Assembly: GCA_032718475.1 (NCBI GenBank)
Contig: JAUCBJ010004452.1
Span: forward strand, 33,155-97,154
DNA length: 64,000 nt
Reading direction: 5' to 3'
From: Nemertoderma westbladi
Taxonomy: Eukaryota; Animalia; Xenacoelomorpha
Shown: positions 7,871 to 55,493 of the stretch, in pieces
How the letters are laid out: every line of letters starts with the position of its first letter
How positions within the stretch are numbered: position 1 is the stretch's first letter
The notes under the pieces: model-generated
Told to the model about the DNA's origin: nothing
Databases searched by the model: none
Seen by the model: the letters and a program-made list of their open reading frames with translations, nothing else
Made by a program: the position numbers and the translations under genes

Positions 7871-8519
7871 TGTGACGGGATCGTTGAGTTGTCAGTGAGA
7901 ACCCGACCGGTTAGATTGTATGCGTCACTTTATTGCTGGGCTGCTGGTATAATATCTTTGGCCGAAGGCCGATGGGAAAACAATGTAGTTTGTTTCTCAG
8001 TATTAATAACCTCAGCGATAATAGCACAGTCGGAATAATACAGATATTATGAGTTAATCATACAACAGTATAGTAACAGCAAATGATATATAAATGACGG
8101 TCAAAAACTATGCCTGTCTGTAACTGTGAGAAAATCAACTGACCGGTAAATCAGAAATTAGAGTAACTATATAATTGATACATATTGGTTTCAGTCCTAT
8201 ACTACTGTGTGGCCTTTGGTACCCAATGGATGCATTCCTATCCTCCCAATCCACTTAGTGGCAGCTATTGGCTTAACTATTAATTCTCGCCTCGCCACTC
8301 CCTGTTGGTGTTACCCCCTGCTGCTAGCCTCTCTAGCTGGTTTGTCCCTCTGAGGTGGTTTGACCTCTCACCTCTCTCTGTGGCTTAGGGCATGTATCCC
8401 TCCCCCGAGTTGGTTATGAGGTGAGATTATTATTGGTAATCTCACATCGCCAACTATATTGGTAAAACGCCACTGGTCCCATTTTGGGTGGGCAATGTAG
8501 GGAATTGAATCTGCTTACA
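7871..8519 (-). repeat. 3' LTR of element A
   Basis: TGTGACGG…GCTTACA; direct repeat of 25221-25878; followed on + by CTCCCCCC (PPT on minus). Confidence 0.95.
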
Positions 8520-9230
8520 CTCCCCCCATGCTATCTTCCCGGTGAGAAGATAGCATCAACCTTAAGTGCACTTCAATTCCGCTAGAATCCAATCTATCAT
8601 TGGATGTGGGGTGGAGTTTTCTTATCGGGGTCGGCTCTCCAGACCGGCCCCCATGGGTCTGTTATTACTACCCATCCTTGGTGCAATCGCGAGCTATGTT
8701 GCACCAAGGTATCTGGTGTCTCTGTTTGAGGTCATTGTCCTCACTCTCCACACAATTTTTCTCAAATTTTCCTCATGGACCTTTGTCCCTTCCTCTCTCA
8801 CCAGTCCCTTTGGGACTCATCCTCCTTCAATGCTCGCTCCCCACGCTTGAATTGCACTCCGTTCACTTCTTCACACCCCTACGCATCCTCCCCATTCTTC
8901 CCCCAATCCCCTATACTCAACCGATATTTTATTCCCATTCTTCGTGCCCACCTGTCAGGCTTCCACATTCTCATTAGTGTGGCCACACTTGAGAAATGGG
9001 ATCCATCTAATGTCTCATCCTCCTGTCGTAGTCAATTGGTCCCCAATCCCAGTAGCTAGTTGGAAAAGGTTGTATATGACTATAGTACTTACATTGATTA
9101 TATATTCGCTTATTAATTAATTATCTACATACGTACATACTAATTGCACTTGACTATTTGCACTTAGGAGTTTGTACTCTTTCCTACATGTGGTGCCTTC
9201 CAGGCACACCCACACCCCTGTTCCTGAGTT

Positions 9231-10805
9231 CTAGTTCGCTCCTCCCATCTTCGGAAACCATCTGAGTTCTTTGCTCCTATCGTCATCTTGTCTGAGCCGT
9301 TTCCTTCCCTCCAGCTTATCCTCCTTGAGACTCCTCATCCTTGCCGATACCGTCTTACTAAGCCCCGTCGTTGGATCTTTAGGAGCAGGTGTTATCAACT
9401 CCCGGTATCGCTTCGCAGTTGGTCCCTCTGAGTATCCCTCCTGTTTCCCTCTGGTAGCATCCCACAGGATCATTTTCATCGCCCGCGGCACGTGCTCCGC
9501 CTGAAAGTCCCTGAACTCGATTATATTTTCTGGCGACCATCTGTCTAGGTATCTCTGAGTGTTAATGACTCCTCCATACGATGCCGCTGTTGCTACCTCC
9601 TGATATGTGAATGGTAGTCTCCTCTTGGTAATCTCCTGGTGGGCTCCCGCGTTGATATTAAAGAAGCCCCACTGGAACTCCTGGGCCTTCATCCTTTGTC
9701 GTGTCATGACTCCGACGTTGGCCCACTCCTCGAAGATCCAGAACTTCTCCTCGTCGTCCATCCAATCGCACTGATACCCAAAGTGCCCTCGGAAGTTGCA
9801 CTTTGAGCATCGGTTGTGCAGCCTCGGACACGCACCCATCCTATGGGTCGACTCGCGGCAGTAGAGACAGGACGTCCCCTTCTGGAAACAATACAGGCTG
9901 CTCTTTTCCTGGTGGGTTAGTCTCCCACAGTGCCCCGCCCCAAGTCGTCCTTGGCTCCGTGTGGCCTCCTGGGTCTATGGAGCCGTTGGTAGGCAAACAT
10001 CTGGACGCTATGTTCCCTACCCATGTCGATGTCCTCCTCCACCCTTGGCATCGTTTTCCCAAACACTACCCATGGTGCCGTTCCCGGTTGCTCGCCCAAC
10101 CTGATCATACTCGCCGCGAAAACCATCGCCAGCTCCCATGCTCCCAGGCCCGCTTACTGGGTTTGTCCCAGAAGGCTCTCGTCCCGCTGGCCGTCACCAC
10201 CCTCCCGCCTACCCAGTCCGTATCCGAGTGGCCGATCCTCTCTATCAGCGGCATCGCCCCGAACATGTCCTCTTCTTCCTCTCTCACCGGGAGTGGACCC
10301 GAACCCAGTAGCCCAGTAGATCCACTATGTCCCTTTCCACCTTGGTTTCCGCCCATGACTTTCCACCCCTCCAGCTTCTTCCGTCTCTTCCTTCCAAAAT
10401 CGCCCTCTGAGCCCCCTGGCATGGGCATTGCTTGCAATCCCGATGTCGACTGTTTCGGTGATTCTTCCATCCATCCCAGTTTGTCCACCAGAAACTCACC
10501 TGAGGTCTCCAATCCCCACCTCAGTTCGTCCAGGTTCTGGGCTTCGAACTCGTATTCCTCTCCCCTTATGTCCGCTTCTCTCTCTGCTGCCTCCCTCCTT
10601 TCTCTCCTCGCTACCTCCTCCAGTCTCCTCTCCTCTCCTCGACTCTATCCGCTTCCAACTTCTTCCACCTCTTGTACGGTGTGTTCACCTCCCTGTCCAC
10701 TAGGTGTCGGCTATCGTAGTATACCGATTCGCCCTTCAGCCCCGGGTGGTCTACAAGACCTTCAAAGGCCACCTTAAGGGCTCTCCTGTGATTCAGAGGT
10801 GCTTC
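9231..10805 (-). pseudogene. C-terminal part of accessory ORF of element A (acidic linker + CCHC zinc knuckles), frameshifted
   Basis: CLYCRESTHRMGAC and CSKCNFRGHFGYQC (CX2CX4HX4C); collinear with 30790-32281 of element C. Confidence 0.85.
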
Positions 10806-11382
10806 TGTGACGGGATCAGAGGATCCCGACCGGTTAATTTATGTTACACGTGACCGCACGATCGCGAAAAGAGTTTGTTGTTGTTATTCTGATCTTGATA
10901 TAAACTGATGATAATATAATATATGTAATAGCACAGTTGAAATAATGCAGTAAAGAATGATGTACCGGTAGTGATTGATAATATAGGTGACGGACAGTGA
11001 CGGTACTAAAGTGTCACCGATCTGCTCTAAGTGACTGAGATAACTGAATGGTAATGCAAGTTGATTGATAATATATATTCACTCTTACACTACTGTGGCC
11101 TTAGTACCTAGCGGATGCTCTCTTCCCTGTCCCTGATTGGCTAGTGCGCTAATTCTCGGCTCCCACCTCTGTGGGAGTGCTTCCCCCCCACTGCTGTTAC
11201 TTTCCCTCACCAGGAGGTTTAACCTCTGACCTCCCTTTGTGTGGCTCTTTGGGGTTTGTTGTCCCCGTTATTGGTTGTGTGATACGAGGTTAATTGGGAT
11301 TAATCTCGTATCCCCAATATTGCTAAAAGGTGCCACTGCTCTAACTCTATGGGGGTAATGAGCGAAATTGAATCCGCTCACA
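10806..11382 (-). repeat. 3' LTR of element B
   Basis: TGTGACGGGATCAGAGG…GCTCACA; direct repeat of 18927-19505. Confidence 0.95.
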
Positions 11383-14004
11383 CTCCCCCCCATGCTATCT
11401 TTCCGGTGAGAAGATAGCATCAACCACTGAGTGCACTTCAATTCCGCTGGAACCCGATCTACTATCGGGTGTGGGGTGGAGTTCTCTTACTTGGAGTCGG
11501 CTTTCCAGGCTGCTCCCTCTGGGTATGATGTCACTACCCTCTCTTGGTGCAACCGCAACCTATGTTACACCAAGACATCTGGCATCTCGGTTTGAGACAA
11601 TTGTGGATTTCTCTCACACAATTTTAAAAGCTCTCTCACTCAAACTCTAACTTCTCACTCTACTCTACTTTGGCTCCACTCTAACTCCTCTCTACTCTCT
11701 CTTACTCTCTCCCCACACCTGAATCGCACTCGTCTGCACTCTCTCTCGCCAACAGCTCCTCTCCATACTCCTCTCATACTGCCCTCAAAGGCGCTAAGTC
11801 TCTTATGTTACCCCTGTGCTATCATTCTATCTACTTACTACTTACTTGCTACTTCACTCTACTAACTCTGCTAACTTTACTAACTATACCAACTATACTA
11901 ACTATACTAGCCTTCTTACTTTCTACTAACTCTCTACTAACTCTTCTAAGTCTACTAGCTCTCTACCTCTACTAACTCTCTACCTCTACTAACTCTACTG
12001 ACTACGTGGCGCTTTCGGTGCCCACAACCACTCTGCTACTACCTCTATCTACGTGGCGCTTCCGGTGCCCACAACCCCTCTATTCTCTTTCTACGTGGCG
12101 CTTCCGGTGCCCACAACCCCTCTGCTACTACTCGTGGCATGTCAATATACCACACTCCCTATACCCGCCGACTTCTAACCCTCCCGGTACTACGTACCCT
12201 CCTACTCCCGTGGTATGTCTATATACCACACTCCCTATACCCGCCGACTTCTAACTTAATGGTACTACGTACCCTCCTACTCCCATGGTATGTTAATACC
12301 ACACTCCCTATACCCGCCGACTTCTAACTTCTTACTAACTTTCTTACTAACTCCTACTTACTTACTATCTTCTAACTACTACTTACTATCTAACTTCTAA
12401 CCTTCTAACTTTCTTATTTAATTATTTTTATATTTTTACTTATTTTTAATTATTTATGTGTGGGAAGGCCGTCTCGCCCTCATTCCCACCCCCCCAGTCC
12501 AAAATATTGGACGACTAAACTTCAACTAACTTCATCTAAACTTTGAGGGCGATTCTTCCAACAGGCACTCTACCACTGCTCCCCTTGTAGGTCCTGTAGG
12601 ATTCGCCACACTCTCCTCACCAATTCCAACTCACCAGGAATTGGTTCTCCCTCTTCTACCACCCTAAAATCGGGTCACTCCGCCGCCTTGTCAATACCCT
12701 GATCTCCTGGCAGCAAAATGCCACCCTTCATCTGGTCGCCTCCCGGCAGCAGAATGGAAAGAAACTGAAAGAACAGACAAAACAGAACGAACAATAGTAA
12801 TCCTATCCCTTTCCATCTTGTCTTCTTACTCGACCTCCCCCTTGTTGGTATGCCTCTCAACCGGACCGGCGTCTCTTCCGGACACTCCTCTGGACACTCC
12901 TCCGGACACTCCTTCCGACACTCCTCCGGACTGTTGTCCTCCGGACATCTCGCCGTCCGCTCCTCCGGGTTGTCCTCCGGACATCTCGCTGTCCGCTCCT
13001 CTCCATCCCCATACCGATACTTGCTGGGACCCTTGTTCCATCCCATTGCCTCTAAGTCTTCCGCATCAAATCCATTCTCCTCCGCCCACTCCCCTACTGT
13101 TACTTCCCCATCTGGCTCATCTACCATCTCCGGTTTCTTCTCTTCGTCCTCTGCGTCTACGGTGCCTGGTAACATGCACCCTGATGTCTCCGTAACCCTG
13201 GATGGAATCTTGGTTTTAACTGGGCCACTAAGCGTCCATCCGAACAGCGTGAGGATCGCCGTCGGATCCCGCTGTCTGTCTTCGCTGAAGACCGTCTGCA
13301 TTCTCTCGTGGGCCGTCGGGCAGTCCATTCCTACTATAATGGATACCTTCCTAACGTCCACCTCTGGTATTGATAAATCGATACTGTCCAGGAATCTATA
13401 TTGTTCGACTTCAATGTTGGTTGGTCGCCTGGCATTGATATTTATCGATTCACCTGGATGGGGTCGATCATCGCCCCATAATCGCATCCCGGTGCTATTG
13501 CTGCTATCTTGCACCGCTCCGTCCTCATCTCCAGGACCTCATCCGTACTTGAGACGGTAGTTACCGCCATCCTATTCAGCCTCGTCTTTAGCCCTATCTC
13601 TTCTGCCACCCAATTCTCCACCAGCGTGAAGGCTGCTCCGCTGTCGACCAGCATTAATGTTGTGACTGATCGGCCACCTCGTCCTGTTATCTCACTGGTA
13701 CTACCCCGAGTAGTACTTTCCTCTTTCTCCTTACTCCTGTCGTGCTCGTAGCCATGGTTTGGCCTCCAGTCTCATCCTCTCCTATTGCTGTTTATCTACA
13801 CTCTCCGGATCTGTGTCCTTCTACCACACAATGATGACATAGTCTGTTTGCGTCTGTGTAGGCTACACGATCTTGTTTGGGCAACGCTTGCCAGTGCTTA
13901 CAACTCATGGTCTTATGGGTTCCATCCCTATGCAGTTGACATTCGAATCCTGGATTGTAGCGTTCCCTGTATAGTCCCTCACGTATCGCGCGTAGGTTTA
14001 TATC

Positions 14005-14553
14005 TGTTTCGCTCATGAGCGAAAGTTACTACTGTACTTAAAAAAGTATAATCCCGTTTAAGTTATTTTGAGAGACAGATATACTGGTTACCGCAGTACC
14101 GGTACGAGAATTTATTATTGTATTATTGTATTATTTTTGTTGCATTGAATGTAGGCCTACCTTTTCAGTGTATAGCTGTATTGCGTTTGGAGGTGGACAG
14201 ATGGGCCTACCGCTGTACGGCAGTAAGGCTTCTACCGGCTGTGTGGTGAATATTGTTTATACTTATGTCTTTGAGGAGTGGAGACAGAACTGGTTCGAAT
14301 CTATCTACTGTCAGACTGTTGCTGCATGTATTCGAATTCAACCAACCGTATAGTTTTTGAACCAACCCTGTATTTGGTATTGATTGAAGCTTACTATTTA
14401 CTGATTTATATATATGTATGTACGTGTTTCGATGGACCCCGTATGCCGTATTTATTATTAATATAAAAGCAACTAAGCTTTTACTGCAATGGCAGTTCTG
14501 GGTGTAGATCTTTTTTCATTATATTATTTCATCGATGGTGGCACGGTGAAACA
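14005..14553. mobile_element. Solo LTR (549 bp) of another family inserted in gag of element B
   Basis: Ends TGTTTC…GAAACA with 5-bp TSD ATATC (14000-14004 / 14554-14558). Removing it restores gag NSKQVDINLRAIRE, matching NTKPLDMNLRTICE in A. Confidence 0.85.
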
Positions 14554-17123
14554 ATATCTACCTGTTTACTGTTTTGGTTATCTGGACTCGGCCTACTGGG
14601 TGTGCTGGGATCTTGTTTATTTGTGTTGTTATTTTCTTTCTGTCCCTGCCACGGTGTGGCCTTACTCCCAGCTAACTGTGGACTAGCAGTCCCCTGTGTG
14701 GCCGCGTGTGGTAGCGATTGTCTTACTCTCGGGAATGGATCTGCAGGATTGTGTTCGGGTTTAGGCCTGTTGTATTCGGTCTTCGGTGCCTTCCCCAAAC
14801 TATCCTCACTATAGACTGGGTCTGTAATCAACTCGGCTTCGTAGTTGAAGAAGTTTGACATTTCCTCTAGCCCTGGCTCCGCACCTTTCTTCTCCCGAGT
14901 GGAGAAGGCGATCTTCCTCCACTTGCTCCATAACCAGATCGGCAGTGCCTGCGCTATCGTGGTGATGTTATTAGATGCGTTGAGTTCGTATGGCGCGTCT
15001 AGCATCTTCAACACGATTAGCGCCTTCTCAACTTTGTTCGCAAACGTCTTTATACTAACGGGGTTATCCTGTAGGCCACCCAATCTTGGCCGGGTGCCCG
15101 TACTCCCTGTCTAGCGCCCGCCATGCTGTCGTGAAGCCTCCCTCGATGCCCTGGTACTGCCTCACGATGTCGTATGCTGGGCCTCCTGTATACACCTGTA
15201 GATATTTTAGGCACTCTGCCTGTGTCAGGTTCTTTGTCAATATTTCATTGCTGTACATGCGCCGAAATTGCAGGTATTCTTCCGGCCTACTTCCATCGAA
15301 TTTAAATGGTTCTACAGGTGGTAACTCGATTCTGGTCTTCAATGCATCGATTAATGTAGCCATTCCCATCGCCTGTGCTTCCAATGGGTTCGATGGATGC
15401 TGTACAGATTCTCCCGTTGGGTGCGGTCCGCCTGTCCTGTCTGTTGCCCTCCTTTGCGTCGGATATATCATTGGGGGTAACGGCTCCCTCCATATTTCCG
15501 TGTCACAAGATTTGTTCTTGTCCAGGGGATTCGATGTTCTTATTCCTGTTTGAGTATATTGTTGATATTGTGATGGGGGAATGTCACCCTGCCCCCCCCC
15601 CCCTCCCCACCAGTATGTTTGGTACTGGGGTTGATGTTAATATATTGGGGCCCATACACCTATCCGCAATAACTCTCCCCTCCCCTGGATATATGTTATG
15701 TCCCTGCATATTATAGTCATGCTGCTGTGCTGGTACCGATATAGGCCTATCCACTTCTTGCCTACCTACTGGCATGTACTCCGCGACTTCCGGATCTAAT
15801 CCCGTCGTTCGCGCTACCCTATCGCCTACACTATCTCTCCCAGCATGGCCTATAGTATGTGCAGTAAGGCCTACAGTATGTTCTGCAGTCTGCATGTGCC
15901 CTTCCGAACCGAGGTTTAATCTTCTCGAATCTCGAACCTCCCCGCGACTACCATACTCTCGATCGGCAGCTATATCCCATCGGGAAGTTTCTCTTCGATC
16001 CCCTCTCCTGTTCTCGTCTTCGTATCGGTACGTCCTGTACCCCTCTCCTGGCGTGTGGTGCGTCTCTCCAGGGCGACGGCAATCTCCCGGAGTTCGACCC
16101 CACTGACTCCCTAACTCCATCTCTACTACCGACAGTTCGCTATCTGTCCTTACTCTTCGGTTGCTCGTAGCAACGATTCTTCTATTCTCTTCACTTCTTC
16201 TCTCTTCGACCTCCCGGTTACACTCTACTATTCTTCTTCTCTCTTCCGACTGACGTCTTCTCGCTCGCCCACTCTCGGCGCTAACATCTGACTCTACTCT
16301 GTCCGGCTGGACCCTCCTGGGGATACTCGCCATCCCCCTACTATTCTCCGTCGTCGGGTGCTGCGGTTCACCTATCTCGCCGACGCCTGTGGGACATTCT
16401 CTGCCCCCCCCCCCCTCTCGCTACTAATCTCTCGTGGTGGGGCGCCTGTAGCCCCCCCCCCCCCCCCCCACCTGCTGCTTCTTACTTCACTACCTCTTAC
16501 TTCACTTCTACGTCCTTCTTGTGGGGCACTCTCTGCCCCCCCCTCTCTCGCCACTAATCTTCCGTGGTGGGGTGCCCGTAGCCCCCCCCCCCCCCCCCCC
16601 CACTCGCCACTTCTTACTCCACTACCTCTTACTTCGCTTCTAAGCCCCTCTTGTGGGACATTCTCTGCCCCCCCTCTCTCGCCACTAATCTTCCGTGGTG
16701 GGGCGCCCGTAGCCTCCCTCCCCCCACTCGCCACTTCTTACTTCGCTACCTCTTACTTCGCTTCTACACCCCTCTCTAGTCGACGCACTGTCTCTACTGC
16801 AGCTGGGTCTACTCACCCCCGCCTCTCCCTGTGCAACTGCGTGGCCTGGCAGGCTCCCGTTGGGTTGACTCACCCCCGTTACTCCCTGCCTAACATACGT
16901 GGCCTTGCAAGCTCCCGTCGGGGTCACTCACCCCCGCTACTCCCTGCGTACTAACTACGTTGCCTTGCAGGCTTCGGTTGGCCGGACCACCTGTGTCTTC
17001 TATATTAGTATTAATAGCCCCGTTATCAATATTATTATTTTCTAAATTATTCAAATTATTTGAATTATTCTGTATATTTAAATTTAAATTATTATTATTT
17101 TGTGTATTTGAATTAGAATTATT

Positions 17124-17352
17124 TTTTTTTAATTATAATAATTATTTATTTTATTAATAATATCCAAATCCATTAAACCAAAATTAAATATAAAACTGCA
17201 CCAGCATCCCACCACCAATCAGAACAAAACAATTAAGACAATAAGATTTAACATACAATTAAAAATGGTGCACCGTGAGTTAATAATGGTCTGCGAGGTC
17301 ATTCCCCCGCAGACCCGCACCATCCCCAAAGCCCAGCGCCCTCCAGGGACGC
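17124..17352 (-). mobile_element. Short retroposed (LINE 3' end/SINE-like) fragment in gag of B
   Basis: GC-richer segment with adjacent T-run, flanked by ATTAGAATTATT (17112-17123 / 17353-17364). The host region is itself repetitive, so the TSD is weak evidence. Confidence 0.4.
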
Positions 17353-18926
17353 ATTAGAATTATTCAGATTATTTTGAATATTTGAATTAGAATTATTATT
17401 TTCTGTATTTAAATTAAAATTATTATTTTCTGTATTTAAATTAAAATTATTATTTTCTGTATTTAAATTAAAATTATTATTTGGATTATTTGTATTTAAA
17501 TTAGAATTACCGGATAAAACATTACTTCCTGCAATGAAAGTTTGGTTAGGGTTGTCTAATACGGTACTATTAATATTAATTTCTTCTAATGTATTTTTAT
17601 TACCCCCCCCCCCCCCCCGCCCGTACGGTTACACCAGTTCTGGTTCTGTCGTCCGGTGCCTGTAAGTGGGATATTAACAAACGTTTCCACTACTTCTGGC
17701 TCCTCGTAAATACTACCCGAGCCAGCCTCACTCTCCGATAGTCCCAACTGCGCCAGTTCTAGTCGGCGCTTCTGCTTGGCCTGATACTGCATAAGCCCCC
17801 TTAGCCGGGCATGCATATCATCCCGCATACACTTTCCCGCTCTCTCTCTCTCTCTATCCTCCCGTAAACTCTGCTCGGCCAACTCTGCCTCTCTCGCCTC
17901 CCGCTCTCTACAGTTTCTCGCCACCCTCTCAGCCCTCTCTTTATTCTCTCTCACTAACTCTCTCTCTTTCTCTAATAACGCAGTTCCCTCATCCAACTGC
18001 CTCTCTAATTCTTTCTGGTCTAGCGCCGCAATGTCTAGTTGACACGCCAGATCTATCTCTAACACCCTTCTTGCTTTGGCGGAGGATGTAGCGGACTTAT
18101 CGGTCACGACGGACTCCCGTCGCCTCTCTGTCCTACTAACTTTCCCCCACTTTCCAGGGTTCTCGCTAACCGACGAGACCGAATCCTCGGAGTTAACCTC
18201 GGGTTCGCCCTCGTGCGGGTCTGCCCAACCCACTAACTTAATCCCCCTAGCATCCACTAAATACGGCCCTATGTACACTACTTGGGGCTCCATTATCCCG
18301 GATCGCCACAGTTCAAATAGTTCAGTGGCGACCCCCCTCGCTCTCTCACTGGCTAGTTCTCCCTGTCCGAAGCGAACTAGGTATCTAAAATGTTTATTCG
18401 ACTCACCTAGTCGCTGGCTCAACTTCCCTTGGTCTATCTTTACTCCTTCTCTGGCTCTGGCCTCCTTGAGCTGTTTCTTTGTTGCGTTGTAGGCTCGTCG
18501 GAGCCAGTCACTGGTTCCGACGTCCTCGTCGCCGACCTCTCCTCCTCCCCTCCTGGTACGGCGTCGTACCGGCGGCCCCACCGTCGCCGTTCCGGTGGGC
18601 CATCCGTCGCCCTCAGCCTGTAGCTGGCCGGCGACATCGGTACTTCGACCGCCATCGTGCGTTGACTCGTCCTCTCGTCCTGGTAGATGGCCGCCCTCCG
18701 CTTGGGCTGCCGGATCGTCTCTCTCCGGCGAGTCCGGCATTGCGGGTCGATACTGTCGCGTCGCGGCCTCACGGATCGTTTCGTTGGTATCATCCAGGGT
18801 CCGCGGCGGTGTCGTCTCTCCCTCTAGATTTCAGGGTTCTCCGCTCATCTTTTAGCATCCTCCCTGGTGGCTGGCAGTCACAGTTCTAGCAGTACCTTAG
18901 ACTTTAGTACTAGGTGACTTTAGTAC

Positions 18927-19505
18927 TGTGACGAGATCAGAGGATCCCGACCGGTCAATTTATGTTACGCGTCACTGCACGATCGAGAAAAGAGTTTGTT
19001 GTTGTTATTCTGATCTTGATATAAACTGATGATAATATAATATATGTAATAGCGCAGTTGAAATAATGCAGTAAAGAATGATGTACCGGTAGTGATTGAT
19101 AATATAGGTGACGGACGGTGACAGTACTAAAGTGTCACCGATCTGCTCTACGTGACTGAGATAACTGAATGGTAATGCAAGTTGATTGATAATATATATT
19201 CACTCTTACACTACTGCGGCCTTAGTACCTAGTGGATGCTCTCTTCCCTGTCCCTGATTGGCTAGTGCGCTAATTCTCGGCTCCCACCTCTGTGGGAGTG
19301 CTTCCCCCCCCCGCTGCTGTTACTTTCCCTCTCCAGGAGGTTTAACCTCTGACCTCCCTTTGTGTGGCTCTTTGGGGTTTGTTGTCCCCGTTATTGGTTG
19401 TGTGATACGAGGTTAATTGGGATTAATCTCGTATCCCCAATATTGCTAAAAGGCGCCACTGCTCTAACTCTATGGGGGTAATGAGTGGAATTGAATCCGC
19501 TCACA
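18927..19505 (-). repeat. 5' LTR of element B
   Basis: Direct repeat of 10806-11382; minus-strand TATA-like run (~19190-19200) and TCAGTT Inr-like motif (19163-19168). Confidence 0.95.
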
Positions 19506-19921
19506 GCTTCTGATAGTAGAAACGCCATCGGCTCTCTTCCGATAATCACGGTAATGAATAGGTTTAATAAACCTATCATTATCCAGTCCTCCTGTAAGAT
19601 ATATCTCTTCTGATATATCTTTATCGCTCGCCTTCGGAACTGATATACCTCCTGCTTTCCTGGTCTCGCTCCCCATTTCAGCGAGTTCGCAAGTTCTGTT
19701 TGTTTTGGCAAGTTCCTGGAAGAATACGGAGCGGAACTTGCTCCAGTCCATCGGCTTGTGGCAGACGAGCCCCATTAGTTGGCCCATCGCCATGGCTCCG
19801 CAATGTCCCGTGTTCTCCACCAATCCCAACCCCTCTGGTCTCATCATAGCCATATAGACTACTTGCATGTCCAGGAGATAGTCTTCTCCGACTTTCTCCT
19901 CTTTACTAACTTCTCTGCCAT
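19506..19921 (-). pseudogene. N-terminal/exonuclease part of accessory ORF of element A (internally deleted)
   Basis: MAEKLVKRRKSEKT is joined directly to LLDMQVVYMAMMRPEGLGLV…IYQKRYILQEDW; homologous to 29796-30760 of C. Confidence 0.85.
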
Positions 19922-20306
19922 CACAAACTTTCCCGCTCTCACCTAACTGGTGGGGCCTTACAAAGGCTCAGTTTAAGTGAGGGTGGTTAAACAGGATGTT
20001 AAAAGTTTCATTCAGTGATAGCCTATGTCCTACGTTATGCTTTTCTTGGTTTTGCTATTATTTATATTCCCCCTTCCTGTGATATTAATAACTGTCACCG
20101 GATTAGTTACTTAAGTAACCCCTCTACTTGTATACAGAGAAGACTAGCTATAATTTTTTATTACTGCGCTAGCTTCCTACCAGACAGCTTTCTGGCTCTG
20201 TAACAATTGCCTATACTTACACTACGGGCTGTGCGGTACAGTAGTCTATTTCGTGAGGCCTACACAGTCTATCCTGCTGTACCCATGTGCCCCCCGCTTC
20301 CCTCCG

Positions 20307-20832
20307 TGGCGCCCTCAGTGCCCACAAGTTCTACGGTACTATGTACCCTACTACTCTGGTATGCGTACATACCCCCCAATTCCTCACGTGGCGCCCTCAG
20401 TGCCCACAGCTTCTACGGTACTGTGTACCCTACTACTACGGTATGCATACATACCCCCCAATTCCTCATGTGGCGCCCTCAGAGCCCACAGGCTCTACGG
20501 TACTATATACCCTACTACTATGGTATGCCTACATACCCCCCAATTCCTCACGTGGCACCCTCAGCGCCCACAAGTTCTACGGTACTATGTACCCTACTAC
20601 TACGGTATGCGTGCATACCCCCCAATTCCTCACGTGGTGCCCTCAGCGCCCACAAGTTCTATGGTACCATGTACCCTACTACTATGGTATGCGCACATAC
20701 CCCCCAATTCCTCATGTGGCGCCCTCAGCACCCACAACTTCTACGGTACTATGTACCCTACTACTACGGTATGCACACATACCCCCCAATTCCTGACATG
20801 GCGCCCTCAGTGCCCACAGGTTCTACGGTACT
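20307..20832. repeat. 82-bp tandem repeat (~6.5 copies) between pol remnant and accessory ORF in A
   Basis: GGCGCCCTCAG recurs every 82 bp; degenerate relatives lie at ~12005-12330 (B) and ~29095-29305 (C). Confidence 0.9.
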
Positions 20833-21019
20833 TAAATTAGGTACGTTGGTACATTATTGTACCCTTCCGACATACATAATTCTAACTACCTACTAATATC
20901 TACTATCTACATTACTAAGTACTTATTTTATTATTTTGCTTATTATTTTTGTTTTTATGTGTGGGAAGGGCGTCTCGCCCTCATTCCCACCCCCCTCAGT
21001 CCAATATATTGGACTACTA

Positions 21020-21145
21020 AACTCTAAGGCGACCCTTCCAATAGACAACACTTTCCTACCGCCCTTCTGTAGGTCTTCCTATCTTTGGCCCCTATCTTTC
21101 CTCCTATCCTCACTTCCACCAATCTAATCCTTCCATCTTCGCCCC
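21020..21145 (-). pseudogene. Extreme C-terminal remnant of BEL integrase in A
   Basis: GEDGRIRLVEVRIGGKIGAKDRKTYRRAVGKCCLLEG, matching 28681-28801 of C. Confidence 0.85.
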
Positions 21146-21170
21146 CCCTCAGTCCAACTTATTGGATGAC

Positions 21171-24100
21171 TCAACAACCTAAGGGCGATTCTTCCAACAG
21201 GCAACTCTCCCACTGCACCCCTGTAGGTCCTCTTAATCTTCGCCCCACTCTCCATGTCAATTCCAACTCTCTTGGAATTGACCTTCCCTTCTCCTCCACC
21301 CTTGAATTGGGTCTTTCCGTCACCTCACTGATCTCCTCATGGTCCCCTGGCAGCAAAATGCCACCCTTCATCTTGTCGTCGCTTGGCGGTAGAATGCCGC
21401 CCTTCATGTCATCCTCCACAGTCCCTTCATCGCCTAGAACCATATAACCACCCCTGCTCACGGATTCTACAAACCTCCTCCACTCCTTCCTTGGTGGTTC
21501 CCTCGGATGCTTCGGTATCCCGAACTTCGCCTCGTATCCCTTTACTACATAGCGAAAATGCTCGAGGATCGCATTGTCCAATGACGGCGTCCCATAGGTC
21601 CCAACCAGTCATCGATCGTGCATCTCCCTAAACGGGTCTTGTAGCGCATGCGCTTTGTGACCCTTTGGTAGCAGTTTGTAGTATCCTTTCGTCTTCTCCT
21701 CCGGATGCCTCTGTGTGAAGTCCACTAGTAACTCCTTCCCAGTCTTCTCCGCTCTTGGTCTAATCTTCCCACATCTTCTCCCCTCCCACCCTGTCCTCCT
21801 ACTTGACCTCCTCCCCATCGGTATGCTTCTCAACTGGACTGGCGTCTGTTCCGGACATCTCTCTGGATCTCTCGCCGTTCACTCTTCTCCATCCTCATAC
21901 CAATACTCGACAGGAACATCTATGTTCCATCCCATCGCCTCCAGGTCCTCCGCGTTGAACCCATTCTCCTCCGCCCACTCTATTGCTGTTGCTTCTCCTC
22001 CTGACTCATCTATCAGCGGTATTTCTATGGACTTATCCTCCACCCTTTCATCACGCCCCACTATGCATGATTCCAGATTCATACCCATCCCCAACTCCTA
22101 GTGTCCTTCCCCGGGCTGCTTCTTGTTTGGGTCCTCCCCATCACCCGTCATTGGTTTCTCCTCTATGTCCTCAATAGTACCGGACAGCATGCACCCTGAT
22201 GTCTCAGACACACCAAACGGTGTCCTCGTCTTAATTGGGCCAGTGAGCATCCATCCAAATGGCGTGAGAATGGCCATCGGGTCTCACTCTCTGTCATCAC
22301 CGAAAATGGTCTGTAGTCTCTCGTGGGCTGTCGGGCAATCCATGCCGATTATGAGAGATACTTTCGGGACAGCCAGTTCGGGCACGGAGAAATCGATGTT
22401 GTCCAGGTACAGGTATTGCTCGACCTCGATCTTTGTGGGTCGCCTGGCGGTAATATTAATCGATTCTATTATTCGGATGGGTTCGATGGTATCACCATAG
22501 CAGCACCCTGGTGTTATCGCTGATATCTCGCAACACCCCGTTCTCATCCTCAAGACCTCGTCCTTACTCGAGATAGTAGTTACCGCCATTTTGCTTGGCC
22601 TCGTCCACAACCCTATCTCTTCAGCCACCCAACTTTCCGCTAGTGTGAACGCTGCTCCGCTGTCGACCAACATTAACGTCGTGACCGACCGCCCGCTCTC
22701 TCCTATTATCCACACCGGTACCACCCCGAGTAGTACCGTTCCCCTTCTCTTCGCTCCCGTGGTGCTTGTCGCCATTGTTTGGCCTCCACTTCCATGTACC
22801 TCGTCGTATTTTACTGGTGTTTCTTTGCACTCTTCGAATCTGTGTCCTCCTACCATGCATCGATGGCATAGTCCATTTATACCAGTGTAGGCTACCCGAT
22901 CTTGTTTAAGCAACGCCTGCCAATGTCTGCAATTCATGGTCTTGTGGAATCCGTTTTTATGTAATTGGCATTTGTATTTTGGATTGTAGCATTCCTTGTA
23001 TAGCGCTTCACATATCGTGCGTAGATTCATATCTAGTGGTTTAGTGTTTTGGTTATTTGGACTCGGCCTACTGGGGGTGTTGGGATTATATTTGTTCGTG
23101 TTATTATTTTGTTTCTGTCCCTGCCACGGTGTGGCCCTACTCCCAGCTGTCTGTGGACTACAAGTCCCCTGAGTTTCCGCGTACAGTAGTGATTGTCTTA
23201 ATTTTGGTAGTGCATTCGCCGCACTGTGTTCGGGTTTAGGCCTGTTGTATTCAGCTTTCGGCACCTTCCCCAGACTGTCCTCGCTGTAGACTGGGTCTGT
23301 AATCAATTCCGCTTCATAGCTAAGGAAGTTCGACATCTCCTCCAGCCCTGGCTCCGCACCTTTCTTCTCCCGGGTGGAGAAGGCGCTCTTTCTCCACTTG
23401 TTCCTCAGCCAGATCGGTAGTGCCTGCGCTATCATAGTGATGTTATTCGATGCATTGAGTTCGTAAGGTGCATCTAGGGTCTTTAATACAATCAGTGCCT
23501 TTTCGACTTTATTTGCGAAGGTCTTAATGCTGACAGGGTTATCCTGGAGTCCGCCTGATGTTATTCCCCTTAAGGTTTGTCGGATAATCTTCGCAGGATG
23601 CCCGAATTCCCTGTCCAGGGCTCGCCATGCAGTCGTGAATCTTCCTTCAATATATTTTGATATATATTTATATATTATTTTGTACACCAATATTAGGGTT
23701 ACTACTACCGGGTAAAATATTATTTCCTGCAAGAAAGTTTTGATTAGGGTTATCTATTATGGTACTATTAATATTAACTTCACCGGATGTATTATTATGA
23801 CCCCCCCCCCCCCCCCCCCCCCGGCTCGTACGGTCACACCAGTCTTGGGTCTGTCGTCCGGTACCTGTAAGTGGGGTATTAACAAAGGTTTCCATCACTT
23901 CCGGTTCCTTGTAAATACTACCCAAACCAGCCTCGCTCTCCGAAAAACCAATTTCTGCCAGTTCTAACCGGCACTTTTGTTTTGCTTGATATTGTATTAA
24001 CCCCCTCAGCCGGGTATGCATATCATCCCTCAAGCGTTTGCCTGCCCTCTCTCTCTCTCTCTCTATCCTCCCTCATACTCTGGTTGGCTAATTCTGTCTT

Positions 24101-25153
24101 CCTCGCCTCCCGCTCTCTACACTCTTTCGTTTCCCTCTCTACCCTCGCTGCCTCTCTCGCTTCTTGCTCTTTGCGCTCGTTCACTTCTCTCGCCTCACCC
24201 TCTCTAAAGTTTCTCGCCACTCTCTCGGCCCTCTCCTCACACTCTCTCGCTAATTCTCTCTCCCTCTCTAGTAACGCAGTTCCCTCAACCAACTGCCTTT
24301 CTAGTTCCTTTTGATCTAGCGCAACAATGTCTAATTAACACGCCAGATCTATATCTAACACCCATCTTGCTTTCGCGGAGGAAGTAGCGGACTTATCGGT
24401 CGCGATGGACTCCCGTCGCCTCTCTGTCCTACTAATTTTCCCCCGTTTGCTGGGGTTCCTACTAACCGACGACACCGAATCCTTGGGGTTAACCTCGGAT
24501 TCGCCGTCGTGCGGGTCTGCCCATCCCACTAACTTAATCCCCCTCGCATCCACTAAGTAAGGCCCTACGTACACTACATCCGCCTCCATCACCTCGGATC
24601 GCCACAATTCTAATAGTTCTGTGGCTACCCCCCTCGCCCTCTCATTCGCCAGTTCCCCCTGTCCAAAACGGACTAAATTGCGAAAGTGTTTATTGGACTC
24701 ACCTAGCCTCTGATATAGTTTAGGCTGGTCTACCTTTCTCCCTTCCTTGGCATCCTTTAACATTCTCTTGGCAGTGTTGTACGCCCGTCGCAGGCGATCA
24801 CTCGTCCCGACGTCCTCCTTGTTGACTCTACCTCCCCTCCTCGTCCGGCGTCGTACCGTCGGCCCCACCGTCGCCGATTCCGGTGGGCTGTTCGCCGCCC
24901 TCGGCCTGTGGTTGGCCGGCGACTTCGGTACTTCGACCGCTGTCGTCACCTCGCGTCGACTCCTCGTTATCTTTCCCTCCTCGTTGTCAGCCACCCTCCG
25001 CTTGGGTATCCGGACCGTCTCTTGCTGGCGAATCCGGGGTGGCGGGCCGGTATCATCTCGTCGCGGCCTCTCGGATAATTTGGTCTGTGTTGTCCGGGGT
25101 CTGCGGCGGCGTTCTTTCTCCCTCCGAAATCTGGGGCGTGTTTCGTTGTCCAC
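21171..25153 (-). pseudogene. gag-protease and post-protease chimeric region of element A
   Basis: ORFs 24335-25153, 24023-24292, 23668-24033, 22284-23732 and 21879-22094 are collinear with B; protease LMLVDSGAAFTL; several stops and frameshifts, plus a deletion relative to B. Confidence 0.9.
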
Positions 25154-25220
25154 TCATGTTTTCTCTTCGGGTCGTAATCACAGTTAGTTTGTCTTAGCTG
25201 CCTGATGGAAAGTTTTTCAC

Positions 25221-25878
25221 TGTGATGGGATCGTTGAGTTGTCAGTGAGATCCCGACCGGTTGGATTGTACGCGTCACTTTATTGCTGGGCTGCTGGGCT
25301 GCTGGTATAATATCTTTGGCCGAAGGCCGATGGGAAAACAATGTAGTTCGTTTCTCAGTATTAATAACCTCAGCGATAATAGCACAGTCAGAATAATACA
25401 GATATTACGAGTTAATCATACAACAGTATAGTAACAGCAAATGATATATAAATGATGGTCAAAAACTATGCCGGTCTGCAACTGTGAGAAAATCAACTGA
25501 CCAGTAAATCAGTAATTAGAGTAACTATATAATTGATACATATTGGTTTCAGCCCTACACTACTATGTGGCCTTTGGTACCCAATGGATGCATTCCTATG
25601 CTCCCAATCTACTTAATTGCAAGCTATTGGCTTAACTATTAATTCTCGCCTTGCCACTCCCTGTTGGAGTTACCCCCTACTGCTAGCCTCTCTAGCTGGT
25701 TTGTCCCTCTGAGGTGGTTTGACCTCTCACCTCTCTCTGTGGCTTAGGGCGTGTATCGCCCCCCCGAGTTGGTTATGAGGCGAGATTATTATTGGTAATC
25801 TCGCATCACCAACTATATTGGTAAAACGCCACTGGTTCCATTTTGGGTGGGCAATGTAGGGAATTGAATCCGCTTACA
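25221..25878 (-). repeat. 5' LTR of element A
   Basis: Direct repeat of 7871-8519 with a small GCTGCTGG duplication; TCAGTT Inr-like motif on minus at 25495-25500. Confidence 0.95.
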
Positions 25879-27400: not shown

Positions 27401-28123
27401 AACCGATTGACTCTTCTGTATATGCGATGGAAGAATCTTAATTGCGTGTATTATAATTAATCAATATAATTAATCTGATTAAATTACATATTGGTTACTC
27501 TAACATCCTTCATTAGCCTCGTTGCGCTCATCCTGTTGTGTCTCAATTTTTATTCTTGACGCAGACTCACGATCATTATAACCATGCAAAGTCTTAGTGT
27601 GTCGGTGTAACTGCTGATTTATGGAAAGTGGATACTCGTATCCACTGTGAAACTTGTTGTGTTCGTTCTGTAGAATCTGGTCACCAAATATTTACCTTAC
27701 AACATTCAAATATCATTAAAATTATATTATAATTTTTTGGGAGAGTAGTCGTAACGCGACTTAGAAAGTCACGGTACAGCTACTCTAAAAGTCACATTAC
27801 GGCTACTTGTCGCGTTATGGCTAATCTATTGTCTTGGTTTTACATAGGGAATCATAATTAATATTATTATATTCTATTGTGTTTGTACAGATGAGGTCCG
27901 AAATGTAAGCAGATTCAATTCCCTGCACTACCCAGTGGAAAATGGGGAAAGTGGCTTTTTACCAATTATAGTAGGGAAGGTGACATTAGTAATATAATGT
28001 CACCTAATAACCAACATAGGCAATACACATTGCCAGCCATAAGCGGAGTTGAGAGGCCATAAACCATCTCAAGGGGACAAAGGGGCTAGCAAGAAAGGAT
28101 AATGGCAGCAGGGAGAGATTAAT

Positions 28124-28801
28124 ACAGAGAAACGCTACGGCATTATCTTTGTTTGCAATATTACGAGGGCCATGGGGATAGAACTAGCTCAGGACGCTAC
28201 GGAAAGGAGGACGCCATAAGCACCACATATGCTGGGCTGTGTAGAGTGCCTCGTCGGAAGCTCCAAGCAGCTCATGACCAAACTCATGAATAATCATATG
28301 GTCACTGAGGACGTACTAAGGACAGTTTTGGCGAAATGCGAGGGAGTTATCAACAGCTGCCCGCTGTATCCCGAGAACGACGATCCAGAATCGCTGGACG
28401 TCCTAACGCCAGCAAACCTGCTGATGGAGAGACCAGCAACGATCGACATGCGAAACATCAACGCAGACGATATACATTCGCGTCAGAGCTGGAAGGTGGC
28501 TAAGGCGATAAGTGCCGAGTATTGGACAAGGTAGATCCAAAAGTACCTTCCAACACTGCACAAGAGGAGCAAATGGAGGAATAACCAGAGGGAGCTTAGG
28601 AAGGGTGACTTGATAATAGTCACAGATGACACAATTATCAACAATCACTGGAGGTTGGCTAGGGTAGTTGATTGCTACCCCGGCGAAGACGGAAGGATTA
28701 GATCCGTGGAAGTGAGGATCGGAGGAAAGATAGGGGCCAAAGATAGGAAGTCCTACAGGATGGCGGTAGGGAAGTGTTGCATATTGGAGGGATTGCCCTA
28801 A
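28124..28801 (+). pseudogene. BEL/Pao integrase fragment (core remnant + DUF5641-type C-terminus)
   Basis: KRYGIIFVCNITRA, LAKCEGVINSCPL, LTPANLL, YWTR*IQKYLPTLHKRSKW, GDLIIV, WRLARVVDCYPGEDGRIRSVEVR. Confidence 0.9.
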
Positions 28802-29795
28802 TTAGTTGAGTCGTCCAATATATTGGACTGTGGGGGGTGGGAATGAGGGCGAGACGCCCTTCTCTCACACTAAACACAAAATTATAAAAATAAAAATAAG
28901 TAGTAAGTAGTACCAAGGTACACTTTAGGTAGACATTATGTACGTCTGATGGGTACGGATGTACCAATGTACATAATATATAGGTGTAGGTAGTTACAAT
29001 AACGTATGTCAGATGGGTACAAATGTGCCAACGTACCTAGTTTACATACGCACCACAAGCTGGGTCAATGGGAACAATATTAATACGTAATACGCACTAC
29101 TGTAGGCACTGAGGGCGCCACGCGAGTAGTTGAGGGGGGTATGTACACATACTGTAGTAGAAGGGTACATAGTACCACAGTGAGGATTAGAAGGGGTATA
29201 CATTATGTATGTCTGGTGGGCACAATGTGCCAATGTACGTAATAATATGTGCTACTGTGGGCACTGAGGGCGCCATGTGAGGAGTTGAGGGGGGTATGTA
29301 TGCGTAGTAGAATAGACCGTGTAGGCTGCATGAACTAGACTACTGCAGTGCATAGCCCATAGTACAGACTTAGGGTATTGTTACAGAGCCGGAAGACCGT
29401 CTGGTAGGAAGCTAGTACAACAATAGGAAAACTGTAGCTAGTCTTCTCTGTATACAAGTAGAAATGAATTACTTACGTAGTAATTGTGTAGCAGATAGAA
29501 TAATAGCACATAGGGGGGATAATATAAAATAATAATAAAATAATAATAAAATAAAAAAAATTATAGCAACTGAGAGGAAGGATTCCAGAATCATGATTAA
29601 AAGCAACGGACAAAATTGCAAATTAGGACCAAAATTGACACATAGGGAAATATTTTTACCAAAAACGAACGAAAAGAGCAGATAGGAGGTAGGCCATTGC
29701 TGATCGAAGCTAATTAAGATCTTATTTAGTAACCCTCTTACCTAACTGAGCCTTTTTAAGGCACCACCAGCTTGGTAAGAGAGAGTGGATTCGTG

Positions 29796-32281
29796 ATGGT
29801 GGAGAAACTGGTGAAGAAGAGGAAGTCGGAGAAGAGCGGGAAGGAATTACTAGTGGACTTCATGCTTAGGCATCCGGAGAACAAGATGAAGGAATACTAC
29901 AAATGACTCCCGAAGGGTCATAAATCGCATGCGCTACAGGATCAGTTTAGGGAGATGCACGAGTGACAACTGGTTGGGACCTACGGAACGCCATCATTGG
30001 ATAACGCGATCGACAAGCATTTTCGCTACATTGTAAAGAGGGACTAGGCTAGGTTTGGGATACCGAAGTATGTGAGGGAACCACCAAGGAAGGAGTGGAG
30101 GAGGTTTGTAGATTCCGTGGAGAGGGGCGGATACATGGTCCTAGACGGCGAGGGGACCGTGGAGGATGACAAAGGCTCAAGAAGGGGGTCGTGAGGATCG
30201 GGTAGAACTATATTGATGCACTTAGCGGCACCGAATGGAGATATCTTTCTATTCGACCTAGGGACCTATGGGAAGAGGAGCGGGCCGAAGTTAAACCGGT
30301 TACCGAATGCGGTGCGGGAACTAGTAAGGCTGAAGACTATGGTCAAGGTAGGATCGGAGATACGAGGCGACGCGGAGAGGATTATTGGACCAGGCACCCC
30401 AAATCTTCTGGACACGCAGGTAGTCTACATGGCTATGACAAAACCAGATGGACTGGGATTGGTGGACAACACGGGACAATACGGAGCCGTGACAATGGGC
30501 CAGCTGATGGGACTCGTCTGCCACAAGCCGATGGAGTGGAACAAGTTCCGAGAGGAATACAATGCAGAGCTTGCAAACTCACTCAAATGGGGAGCAAGAC
30601 CGGGGAAGGAGGAGCTATATCACTTCCGGAAGGGAGTGATAAAGATATATCAGAATAGATATATCTTACAGGAGGAGTGGATAATGATAGGTTTGCTAAA
30701 CCTATTTATCACAGTAACTATTGGCAGGGAGCCGATGGCGTTTCTACTGTCGGGATCAGCTCTGAGCCACAGGAGAGCCTTTAAGGTAGCCCTAGCAGGT
30801 CTTGTAGACCACCCGGGGCTGAAGGGCGAATCGGTGTATTACGATACCCGACACCTGGTGACAGAGAGGTAGACACACCGTACAAGCGATGGAAGAAACA
30901 GGAGGCGGATAGAGAAGAGGAGATGAGGATAGAGGAAGTTGCCAGGAGAGAGAGGAGGGAGGCAGCAGGCAGAGAGGCAGACATAATGGGAGGTGAGTAC
31001 GAGTTTGAGGCCCAAGATTTGGATGAGTTGAGGTGGGGATCGGAGACCTCGGGTGAGTTTCGGCTGGGGGATGAGGTGGATTGGATGGAAGGGACACCAA
31101 TACAGTCTACATCAGGGCTGCAGGGAATGGCGAAGCCTGTGGAATCTGAGGGCGACTTCGGGAGGAAGAGTCCGAGGACGATGGAAGGGTGGAGGGCCAC
31201 GGGCAAATACCAGGCCGGAAAGGGACATGGTGGATCAATTGGGATCCCAGGTCTCAAACCGCTCGTAGTGGAGGAAGTAGAGGAGGACGAGTTCGGGGCG
31301 ATGCCACCAATAAAGAGAATTGGCTGGTCGGACACGGACTGTGTGGATGGGAGAGTTGTGACAGCCAGCGGGGCGAGATCATGATCCGACTGGGCGAGCA
31401 ACCGGGGATGGAACCACGAGTGGTGTTTGGGGAAACAATGCCGAGGGAAGAGGCGGATGCTGACATGGGTAGGGAGGATAACATCGAAATGTTTACCTAC
31501 CAGCGGCTCCACAGACCCAGTAGGCTATGTGGAGCCAATTACGACTTGGGACAAGAGACAGTAATAGACGGTTGCGATTACTGTGGGAGACTAACCCATC
31601 AGCAAAAGAACTGTATGTATCGTTACCAGTAGGGGATGATGTGTCTTTACTGCCGCGAGTCTACGCACAGGTTGGGCACGTGCCCAAGGTTGCACCACAG
31701 GTGTTCGAAGTGCAAGTTTTGGGGGCACTTTGAGTGCCAGTGGGACTGGATGGAGGATGAGGAGAAATTCCGCATTTTCGAGGAATGGGCCGACGTCGGA
31801 GTCATGACAAGGCAAAGGATGAAGGCCCAAGAGTTCCGGTGAGGCTTTTTCAACATTAACATACAAGCCCACCAGGAGATTACAAAAGAGGAGACTACCA
31901 ATCACGTATCAGGAGGCAGCGACAGCGGCATCATATGGAGGGGTCATTAACACCCAAAGAAATCTGGATAGATGGTCACCAGAAAATAGGATAGAATTCA
32001 GGGATTTTCTGGAGGAACCCGTGCCGCGTGCGATGAAAATGATCTTGTGGGATGCTACCAGGGGGAAACAGGAGGGACACTCAGTGGGGCCACATGTGAA
32101 GCGATATCGTGAGTTAATAACACCCATACCCAAGGATCCAACAACGGGGCTCAGCAAGACGGTATCAGCGAGAATGAGTAGCCTCAAGAACAAACAGGAG
32201 GGGAGGAAGCGACCCAGGCAGGACGATGATAGAGGTAAAGAATTGAGATGGTTCGTGGAGGGTGCGGGAGGAGCACTATAG
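29796..32281 (+). pseudogene. Accessory ORF of element C: DEDD 3'-5' exonuclease-like domain + three CCHC zinc knuckles (~830 codons, several stops/frameshifts)
   Basis: ATG 29796 is in frame with ORF 30213-30872. Motifs: YMVLDGEG (ExoI DxE), LMHLAAPNGDIFLFDL, LPNAVRELVRLKTMVKVGSEIRGDA (ExoII), NLLDTQ, QNRYILQEE (ExoIII-like). Knuckles: CDYCGRLTHQQKNC, CLYCRESTHRLGTC, CSKCKFWGHFEC. Confidence 0.75.
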
Positions 32282-32962
32282 GACTGATTGCGGGCGATGT
32301 CAACGTGGCTGGAAGGCACCACATGGACACACAAGTACAAATAATTCCTAAGTGCAATTAATACAAGTGCAATTAGTATGTACGTAGGTAATCAATCAAT
32401 GCTAGAGAAATATAATATACGTACTATAGTCAGGTATAACCTTTTCCAATTAGCTACTGGGACTAGGGAGTAATTGACTAAAACAGGAGGACGAGACATT
32501 GGACGGACCTCAGTTCTTGAGTGCAACGGCACAAACGAGAATGTGAGGCCCAACAGAAGTGAGTGGGAAAGAAATGGGTTGAGTATGAGAGAAGCATGGG
32601 GGGAGGTGTTAGGGTATGAGAGAGTTGAAAGTGCGAGATCCAAGCGTGGGGAGCGAGCATAGAGGGGGATAAGTCCTATGGGACTAGTGAGAGAGGAACG
32701 GACAACAAAGTCCAAAACATAAAATTTTGAGAGGAGTGAGGGCGAACGTCTAAAACAGAGACGCCAGATGCCTTGGTACAGCTTAGCTCGCAGATGTACC
32801 AAGGATGGGTAGTGAAAACAGACCCAGGGGGGCCAGCCTTGAAAGCTGACCCCGAGAAGAAAATTCCACCCCGCATCCAATACTAGATTGGATTCCAGCG
32901 GAATTGAAGCGCACTTAAGGTTGATGCTATCCTCTCACCGGGAAGATAGCATGGGGGGGGAG

Positions 32963-33306
32963 TGTAAGTGGATTCAATTCCCTGCACTACCCAGCGGAAA
33001 ATGGGGAAAGTGGCTTTTTACCAATTATAGTTGGGAAGGTGACAGTAATATAATGTCACCTAATAACCAACATAGTCAATACACATTGCCAGCCACAAGC
33101 GGAGTTAAGAGGCCAAACCATCTCAAGGGGACAAAGGGGCTAGCAAAAAGGGATAATGGCAGCAGGGGAGAGATTAATAGGTTAGCCAAAGATGGGACAG
33201 GATACCACCTGATTGGAGTGCATCCATTGGCCAGGCCATGTAGAGCAATAGGAATATTCAATATGTGTTGATAATATAAGTAATATAACCATTGCATTTA
33301 TTAGTT
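32963..33306 (+). repeat. Truncated 3' LTR of element C
   Basis: Starts TGTAAGTGGATTCAATTCCC directly after the PPT; similarity to A/B LTRs fades near 33300. Confidence 0.75.
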
Positions 33307-53017: not shown

Positions 53018-53146
53018 ATATGAATCCGAGAGAGGGAACTGATCTAGATGCAGATCGGCTGTTCGTCGCCTTAGATAAACTTGGGTTCAGAGTAGAACAA
53101 TACGATAACTTAACGTGCAAGCAGATGCAGAACCTATGTCGCAAAG
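53018..53146 (+). CDS. Caspase exon 3
   Basis: AATTAG acceptor (phase 1); MNPREGTDLDADRLFVALDKLGFRVEQYDNLTCKQMQNLCRK (RxGTxxD motif); GTTAGT donor, phase 1. Confidence 0.92.
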
Positions 53147-55323: not shown

Positions 55324-55493
55324 GAATTAAGGATTGGAGCAATCGATTGATACAAATTGGGATCGATATGAAAGGAAGCTATAAATTAGTTGATGTGGTA
55401 GACATCGAATTCCATTTGATGTTAGTTTAGATCGTAGTAAGTATTTTAGCGCTACACACACATAGAATATATTATGCTTGCTTATGTTCCTAG

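Follow-up and report, generated by a model that had tools for sequence, protein, structure and literature searches.

Little is known of how animal retrotransposons counter silencing by piRNAs and siRNAs, and the role of the DEDDy exonuclease-like third reading frame (ORF3) carried by some retroelements has been a question since such genes were described in rotifers. The 64-kb stretch of DNA analysed here (the window) contains three related LTR elements, A, B and C, and raises that question for a further group: ORF3 lies at the same position in A and C, is absent from B, and was originally predicted to encode a DEDD-type 3'-5' exonuclease joined to three CCHC zinc knuckles. It was asked whether this is a real gene, whether its domain is an exonuclease and what such a protein might act upon.

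A decayed third gene in a BEL/Pao setting

The BEL/Pao context of ORF3 is supported: the assignment follows from DUF1759 in Gag (Pfam E 5.5e-7 in element B and 0.0087 in element A) together with DUF5641 in the integrase tail of element C, to which the integrase tail of A is homologous (Table 1). Elements A and B have TG...CA LTR ends and 5-bp target duplications, and Pfam matches to aspartic protease were under the cut-offs (E 0.0002-0.0008). No reverse transcriptase (RT) motif or Pfam match was found in A, B or C; all three are internally deleted and the RT region has been lost. In C, a truncated 5' LTR is fused by deletion to the integrase tail, and the far end of its 3' LTR and a target-site duplication were looked for and not found. 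Element B is inserted in the ORF3 of element A.

Table 1. Coordinates of ORF3 and of the elements around it, numbered from the first base of the window.
Feature	Position	Strand	Remarks
Element A	7871..25878	-	Internally deleted BEL/Pao; gag and protease, without RT; target duplication of 5 bp; LTR pair 95% alike
ORF3 copy A, C-terminal part (linker, knuckles, C-terminal region)	9231..10805	-	tblastn
Element B	10806..19505	-	Related BEL/Pao derivative; ORF3 and RT both absent; target duplication of 5 bp; LTR pair 97% alike
ORF3 copy A, start codon region	19511..19921	-	Fused by deletion to second half of exonuclease domain
Displaced ORF3 piece of A, residues ~10-125	21408..21755	-	Upstream of integrase tail, in frame with gag-protease
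Element C, 5' LTR piece	27904..28124	+	First ~220 bp; 93% blastn identity to 32963-33179; starts TG
Element C, BEL/Pao integrase C-terminal part	28130..28804	+	Stops inside; Pfam DUF5641 E 9.4e-23, residues 120-201
Element C, non-coding spacer	28805..29795	+	Short repeats; codon-position bias absent in part compared with A
Candidate splice acceptor	29743..29760	+	Branch-like sequence, pyrimidines, AG; 35 nt before ATG; nearly identical in C and A
ORF3 N-terminal region	29796..30128	+	Basic patch (KKRK), putative NLS; dN/dS 0.21 over 29827-30171
DEDDy-like exonuclease domain	30129..30700	+	D117 (30144), E119 (30150), D192 (30369), Y289 (30660), E293 (30672)
Acidic linker	30875..31420	+	Probably disordered; dN/dS 0.16
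Three CCHC zinc knuckles	31573..31743	+	dN/dS 0.11; third without last Cys in copy C
ORF3 conserved C-terminal region	31890..32281	+	dN/dS 0.08; no Pfam match
Element C, polypurine tract	32951..32962	+	Identical G-run before 3' LTR in A, B and C
Element C, 3' LTR	32963..33290	+	75% identity to LTR of A over 321 aligned bases

In element C the ATG at 29796, the last stop ending at 32281 and the distance of about 1 kb between the integrase stop and the start of ORF3 are all as originally predicted, and the motifs quoted for the exonuclease share one frame (30129-30680). The frame is not, as had been claimed, open for some 830 codons: copy C contains seven internal stops (four in the exonuclease frame, one in the linker and two in the knuckle frame) and three frameshifts, near 30860, 31400-31460 and 31885. 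ORF3 is a real but decayed third gene between the integrase tail and 3' LTR, at the env position. No membrane-spanning segment was found in ORF3 (highest 19-residue mean hydropathy 1.4, four segments). The linker is acidic as expected, with 23% D+E over 30875-31300. The C-terminal 130 residues (31890-32281; 9237-9668 in A) are the most constrained part of the protein and have no family match.

A second, diverged copy in element A had also been proposed, and its pieces are indeed homologous to copy C over the extents given (tblastn, 63-83% identity), but they are rearranged and do not represent a whole gene that was merely split. Copy A has no match to residues ~126-200, which hold the LMHLAAP, VRELV and VKVGSEIRGD motifs and the ExoII region, and has Gly at the position of D117. 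The three knuckles are present in C with CX2CX4HX4C spacing (31573-31614, 31642-31683 and 31702-31743), except that the third has lost its final Cys. That residue is retained in copy A, in which knuckle 1 begins out of frame, so that exact C-X2-C-X4-H-X4-C motifs are found for knuckles 1 and 2 in C and for 2 and 3 in A. Pfam matches were under the cut-off in both copies (zf-CCHC_4, E 0.013 in C; zf-CCHC_3, E 0.0014 in A). The ORF3 knuckles are separated by 9 and 6 residues, compared with a 20-residue spacer in the Gag Cys-His box of A, and therefore do not look copied from that box. A language-model search for look-alikes, using the knuckle and C-terminal frame of A, scored at best 0.89, with fungal DUF8363/CCHC clusters, and recognition was under threshold.

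Comparison of C with A indicates that purifying selection has acted along the whole ORF3 frame. The dN/dS ratios of six consecutive ORF3 segments are 0.21, 0.18, 0.36, 0.16, 0.11 and 0.08 (for the linker, the frame that continues the protein was chosen from the three), compared with 0.16 for the integrase tail, 0.54-1.28 for the non-coding spacer and 3' UTR, and 1.08-2.38 off frame. Third codon positions hold 204 of the 348 differences between the two copies (p 2e-22; non-coding sequence, p 0.41).

The stretch is present in three of the six public DNA runs listed (two studies), one of which may be the source of the window itself. Contigs falling on element C number 4727, 4579 and 6623 in these runs, with 30/30 bins covered, and a fourth run contributes 60 contigs covering 22/30. 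For the 591-bp exonuclease domain, two runs, from two studies, yielded 614 and 750 contigs, the majority less than 95% alike; with hundreds of diverged contigs, ORF3 belongs to a multi-copy family. No contig piece in the public runs reaches from integrase to ORF3, and the linkage of ORF3 to a BEL integrase rests on the two copies in the window. In the D-G-E motif of the original prediction the middle residue is peculiar to copy C, and another is found in nearly all other covering contigs (49 and 48 in two runs). The catalytic codons D117, E119, D192, Y289 and E293 are untouched by the 40 listed of 48 majority differences among contigs.

Several features of the surrounding DNA were recorded. 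After the protease, A (21150-22280) and B (12420-13540), both on the minus strand, run into a common acidic stretch that is not pol; within 12420-13540, a hydrophobic run and short repeats in B take the place of the displaced ORF3 piece of A. Likeness of this acidic stretch to the ORF3 linker was not significant (109/1000 shuffles), and A and B may belong to a non-autonomous subfamily that has a Gag-protease extension of its own. In B, the bases immediately following the 5' LTR are complementary over 13 nt to a site inside the LTR (18914-18930 and ~19125-19140, minus strand), giving a duplex of -23.6 kcal/mol that none of 500 shuffles equalled; the LTR site lies ~60 nt after a TATA-like stretch. 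This arrangement resembles self-priming of the Tf1 type, which to our knowledge has not been described for BEL/Pao. Compensatory changes between the self-pairing sites of A and B were considered and dropped, since the sites do not align in register. An 82-bp tandem array of seven copies occupies 20193-20930 in the spacer of A, and related shorter repeats are found in the spacer of C. Elsewhere in the window a unit of about 2970 bp occurs in four tandem copies, which are mostly 87-96% alike (36900-47100). Satellite arrays built from units of 45, 51 and 27 bp produce long stop-free frames (53000-59600), and a MITE-like structure has an inverted repeat (about 200 bp, the arms 84% alike) flanking around 900 bp (4110-5410). 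Two open frames on the plus strand encode 239 aa (2737-3456; with a DUF6451 match under the cut-off, E 6e-6) and 466 aa (62579-63979; no Pfam match).

The exonuclease-like domain

The proposed DnaQ-like DEDDy fold is supported by targeted motif tests, but neither by library searches nor by an independent fold prediction. Searches of Pfam, NCBIfam, PHROGs and PDB sequences, with E values as high as 10 admitted, found no exonuclease match; whole and partial ORF3 queries did not reach the PF01612 cut-off and gave no match to that family at the same limit. Matches of ORF3 to Flu_M2, to a phrog and to ribosomal L19 were discarded as chance. Relatives were likewise absent at E 0.001 from a phmmer search of 1.84 billion representatives and two word searches, and none were found in metagenome contigs, viral contigs or phages; a single plasmid match (E 7) was attributed to chance. 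The collections searched are poor in animal transposon proteins, so the absence of relatives is weak evidence.

Comparisons were then restricted to a reference set of PF01612 proteins (RNase D, NrnC, Pol I and EXD2-like). Plain HMMs trained on DEDDy proteins gave p 0.016-0.08 or no match and did not single out the stretch among window tiles, a profile of Pol I exonuclease domains gave no match, and hhalign gave p 0.02. When seven blocks of the DEDDy family were scored in order with free spacers, the domain scored 13.7 and 29.8 with two profiles (z 6.9 and 7.6; Gumbel p 3e-4 and 1e-4). It exceeded every one of 1500 shuffles and ranked first among 846 window tiles with both, and each block falls on the motifs noted earlier. 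A Gumbel p of 1e-4 would fail correction for all protein families, and the score of 13.7, obtained with the EXD2-like profile, is lower than the medians of true DEDDy proteins from other subfamilies (26-48).

Unsupervised MAFFT alignment with 45 references placed ExoI, ExoII and ExoIII in register and matched 9 of 12 invariant reference columns, compared with a mean of 3.8 and a maximum of 8 in 220 shuffles; the column of the fourth catalytic Asp is one of those missed. D117 and E119 of the ExoI D-x-E motif fall on invariant columns, as do the Lys and D192 of ExoII, where the Asp follows K-V/I-G. ExoIII had been described as only a loose match, and correctly so: Y289 is present, but the fourth acid of Y-x3-D is Glu in both copies, giving a D-E-D-E tetrad and not D-E-D-D. 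The motif reads Y-I-L-Q-E compared with Y-A-A-x-D in the references, and a 12-residue insertion is needed to align it; with a larger reference set (25+25+15) MAFFT chose another ExoIII register, without an acid. An alignment with EXD2-like references only put ExoI out of register and was not used for folding.

An unguided single-sequence AlphaFold model had a pLDDT of 32.7, and fold searches with it gave no exonuclease match (best E 0.12, best Z 5.4), although it predicts a strand-strand-helix-helix arrangement at residues 137-197 like that of the alignment-guided model. The guided model reached pLDDT 71.7 (core 80-92) and is circular as a test of fold. Its Foldseek ranking is led by trypanosome RNase D, followed by Egalitarian; with the guiding alignment as the query these proteins rank only 37-40 of 48, and the model's best matches are therefore informative despite the circularity. 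T. brucei RNase D also has the highest identity to the guided model, 20% across 163 residues, with a Z of 12.4 and an rmsd of 3.0. Taken on the targeted tests, a DEDDy fold for the ORF3 domain is probable and, given that fold, the domain is more likely than not to be catalytically active with Glu as its fourth acid.

Possible roles of ORF3

The favoured reading, to which a probability of roughly 30% is given, is that ORF3 encodes a knuckle-guided nuclease that would trim the 3' ends of host small RNAs or their precursors and so weaken silencing. The protein would be expressed from a spliced subgenomic mRNA, as for env, as suggested by the conserved acceptor-like site, and its basic N-terminal patch points to a perhaps nuclear location. 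The knuckles would grip single-stranded RNA while the exonuclease site trims its 3' end, RNA being the likely substrate by analogy with trypanosome RNase D; trimming of host small RNAs or precursors would then leave the element less well silenced. Host small RNAs are favoured as the target because this would repay a selfish element and because related host enzymes act there, and they would account for about half of the case in which the domain is active.

That ORF3 is a real accessory protein whose motif series resembles the DEDD family by chance is rather unlikely. Every library search was negative, the unguided model found no exonuclease, and the family was picked following the suggestion of an earlier reader; yet chance would have to supply seven blocks in order, the matches at invariant columns, and the secondary structure shared by the two models. 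Not far behind the favoured reading, though still doubtful, is that the fold is real and catalysis lost, the DEDDy domain and knuckles serving to bind and escort element RNA in nuclear export or localisation, much as Egalitarian or EXD1 would in the host, or CERV in the element Cer1. The Glu at the fourth acid and the bulky residues of the ExoIII helix would suit such a protein, as would the basic patch and acceptor-like site, and there are precedents: Egalitarian, second among the guided-model matches, is described as functional without its catalytic residues (10.1101/2025.08.03.668247), and CERV is described as a spliced, env-position nuclear protein required for genomic RNA export (PMC10309623). 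Against it, ORF3 keeps four acids and a Tyr at the catalytic positions even though it is otherwise at most ~20% like any reference; Egalitarian keeps them too.

An active nuclease could instead serve the element's own replication by trimming an RNA 3' end, a primer or a cDNA intermediate, as proposed for the rotifer DEDDy ORF3s (PMC5408684), and this is somewhat less likely again. Neither A nor B follows its 5' LTR with a tRNA primer site of the TGG type, B has the 13-base complement noted above, as in self-priming elements, and A carries part of ORF3 in the gag-protease frame. However, A, which is the ORF3-bearing element, has no significant complement (447/500 shuffles as good), most BEL/Pao elements replicate without such a gene, and a separately made protein would have to find its way into the particle. 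The least likely role, and a very improbable one, is that of an RT proofreader that would excise mispaired 3' bases from cDNA: family A DNA polymerases do proofread with this fold, and such chains are among the guided-model matches, but ORF3 is a separate gene with no RT fusion, its nearest matches by identity are RNA-acting proteins, and the Pol I exonuclease profile found nothing in it.

The wider form of the small-RNA trimming proposal, which is tentative, is that a BEL/Pao-encoded exoribonuclease trims or destroys host piRNA or siRNA precursors as an enzymatic suppressor of silencing, and that DEDDy nucleases have been recruited separately by gypsy-like, Penelope-like and BEL/Pao elements, in this case with a knuckle array like that of trypanosome RNase D and an unusual D-E-D-E site. 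That a third group of retroelements holds such a gene under strong constraint, joined to RNA-binding knuckles, speaks for a selected tool and not for cargo. Both copies in the window are dead and the fold rests on targeted tests; nevertheless, ORF3 gives a concrete class of substrates to test.

Comparison with known systems

An RNase D-like domain is said to occur in a nematode BEL element. A BEL/Pao exonuclease ORF was not found in the open-access literature searched, and the word 'exonuclease' is absent from the main text of PMC3118150, PMC554778 and PMC2774666. The closest setting is that of the env-bearing Belpaoviridae Tas and Cer7, which are described as sharing the Gag DUF1759, protease, DUF5641, TG...CA LTRs and an extra gene 3' of integrase (PMC554778, PMC3118150), whereas ORF3 lacks the membrane-spanning stretch of env and is nuclease-like. 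CERV of the C. elegans element Cer1 is likewise described as an accessory protein that fills the env slot without being env, is translated from a spliced mRNA and carries a basic NLS candidate, but Cer1 is a Gypsy element and the protein has no exonuclease domain (the main text of PMC10309623 nowhere uses the word 'exonuclease').

Among host proteins, Egalitarian, EXD1, MUT-7/Nibbler, EXD2 and WRN have the DEDDy fold and are among the guided-model matches, and several of them act on small RNAs or transport RNA; in contrast to ORF3 they are host genes, and identity is only 12-19%. We know of no knuckle array in these exonucleases. The combination of exonuclease and CCHC knuckles had been put forward as unrecognised, but T. 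brucei RNase D (TbRND) has a DEDD exonuclease followed by an array of four CCHC fingers, which are described as binding RNA upstream of the active site of an enzyme that trims small guide RNAs (PMC7797062; PDB 7c42-7c4c). TbRND differs in being a cellular, mitochondrial protein with an intact DEDD tetrad, it has no significant sequence similarity to ORF3, and its four fingers follow a 28-residue linker while the three of ORF3 come after about 290 residues.

The novelty originally claimed is also lowered by the DEDDy ORF3s published for the bdelloid rotifer LTR retrotransposons Juno and Vesta, which are reported to have a DEED tetrad and putative activity (PMC5408684). This gene is common to Juno/Vesta and the Athena/Terminon retroelements (PMC5408684, PMC6431247), and a 2019 paper speaks of the DEDDy domain as an accessory already well known in LTR elements (PMC6338049). 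Similar nuclease genes of other retrotransposon groups are thus known from rotifers, while the literature searched contained no BEL/Pao version bearing three knuckles. By its published description, the Juno/Vesta ORF3 resembles the present one in being a stand-alone third frame in the env position, DEDDy-like and with an altered tetrad. The gene described here differs in that its host element is BEL/Pao, its tetrad is D-E-D-E and not DEED, and it encodes a long protein with an acidic linker, three CCHC knuckles and a conserved C-terminal region, where only a Cys-His-Cys motif is described for Vesta2/5; furthermore, the substitution pattern here points to clear purifying selection between subfamilies.
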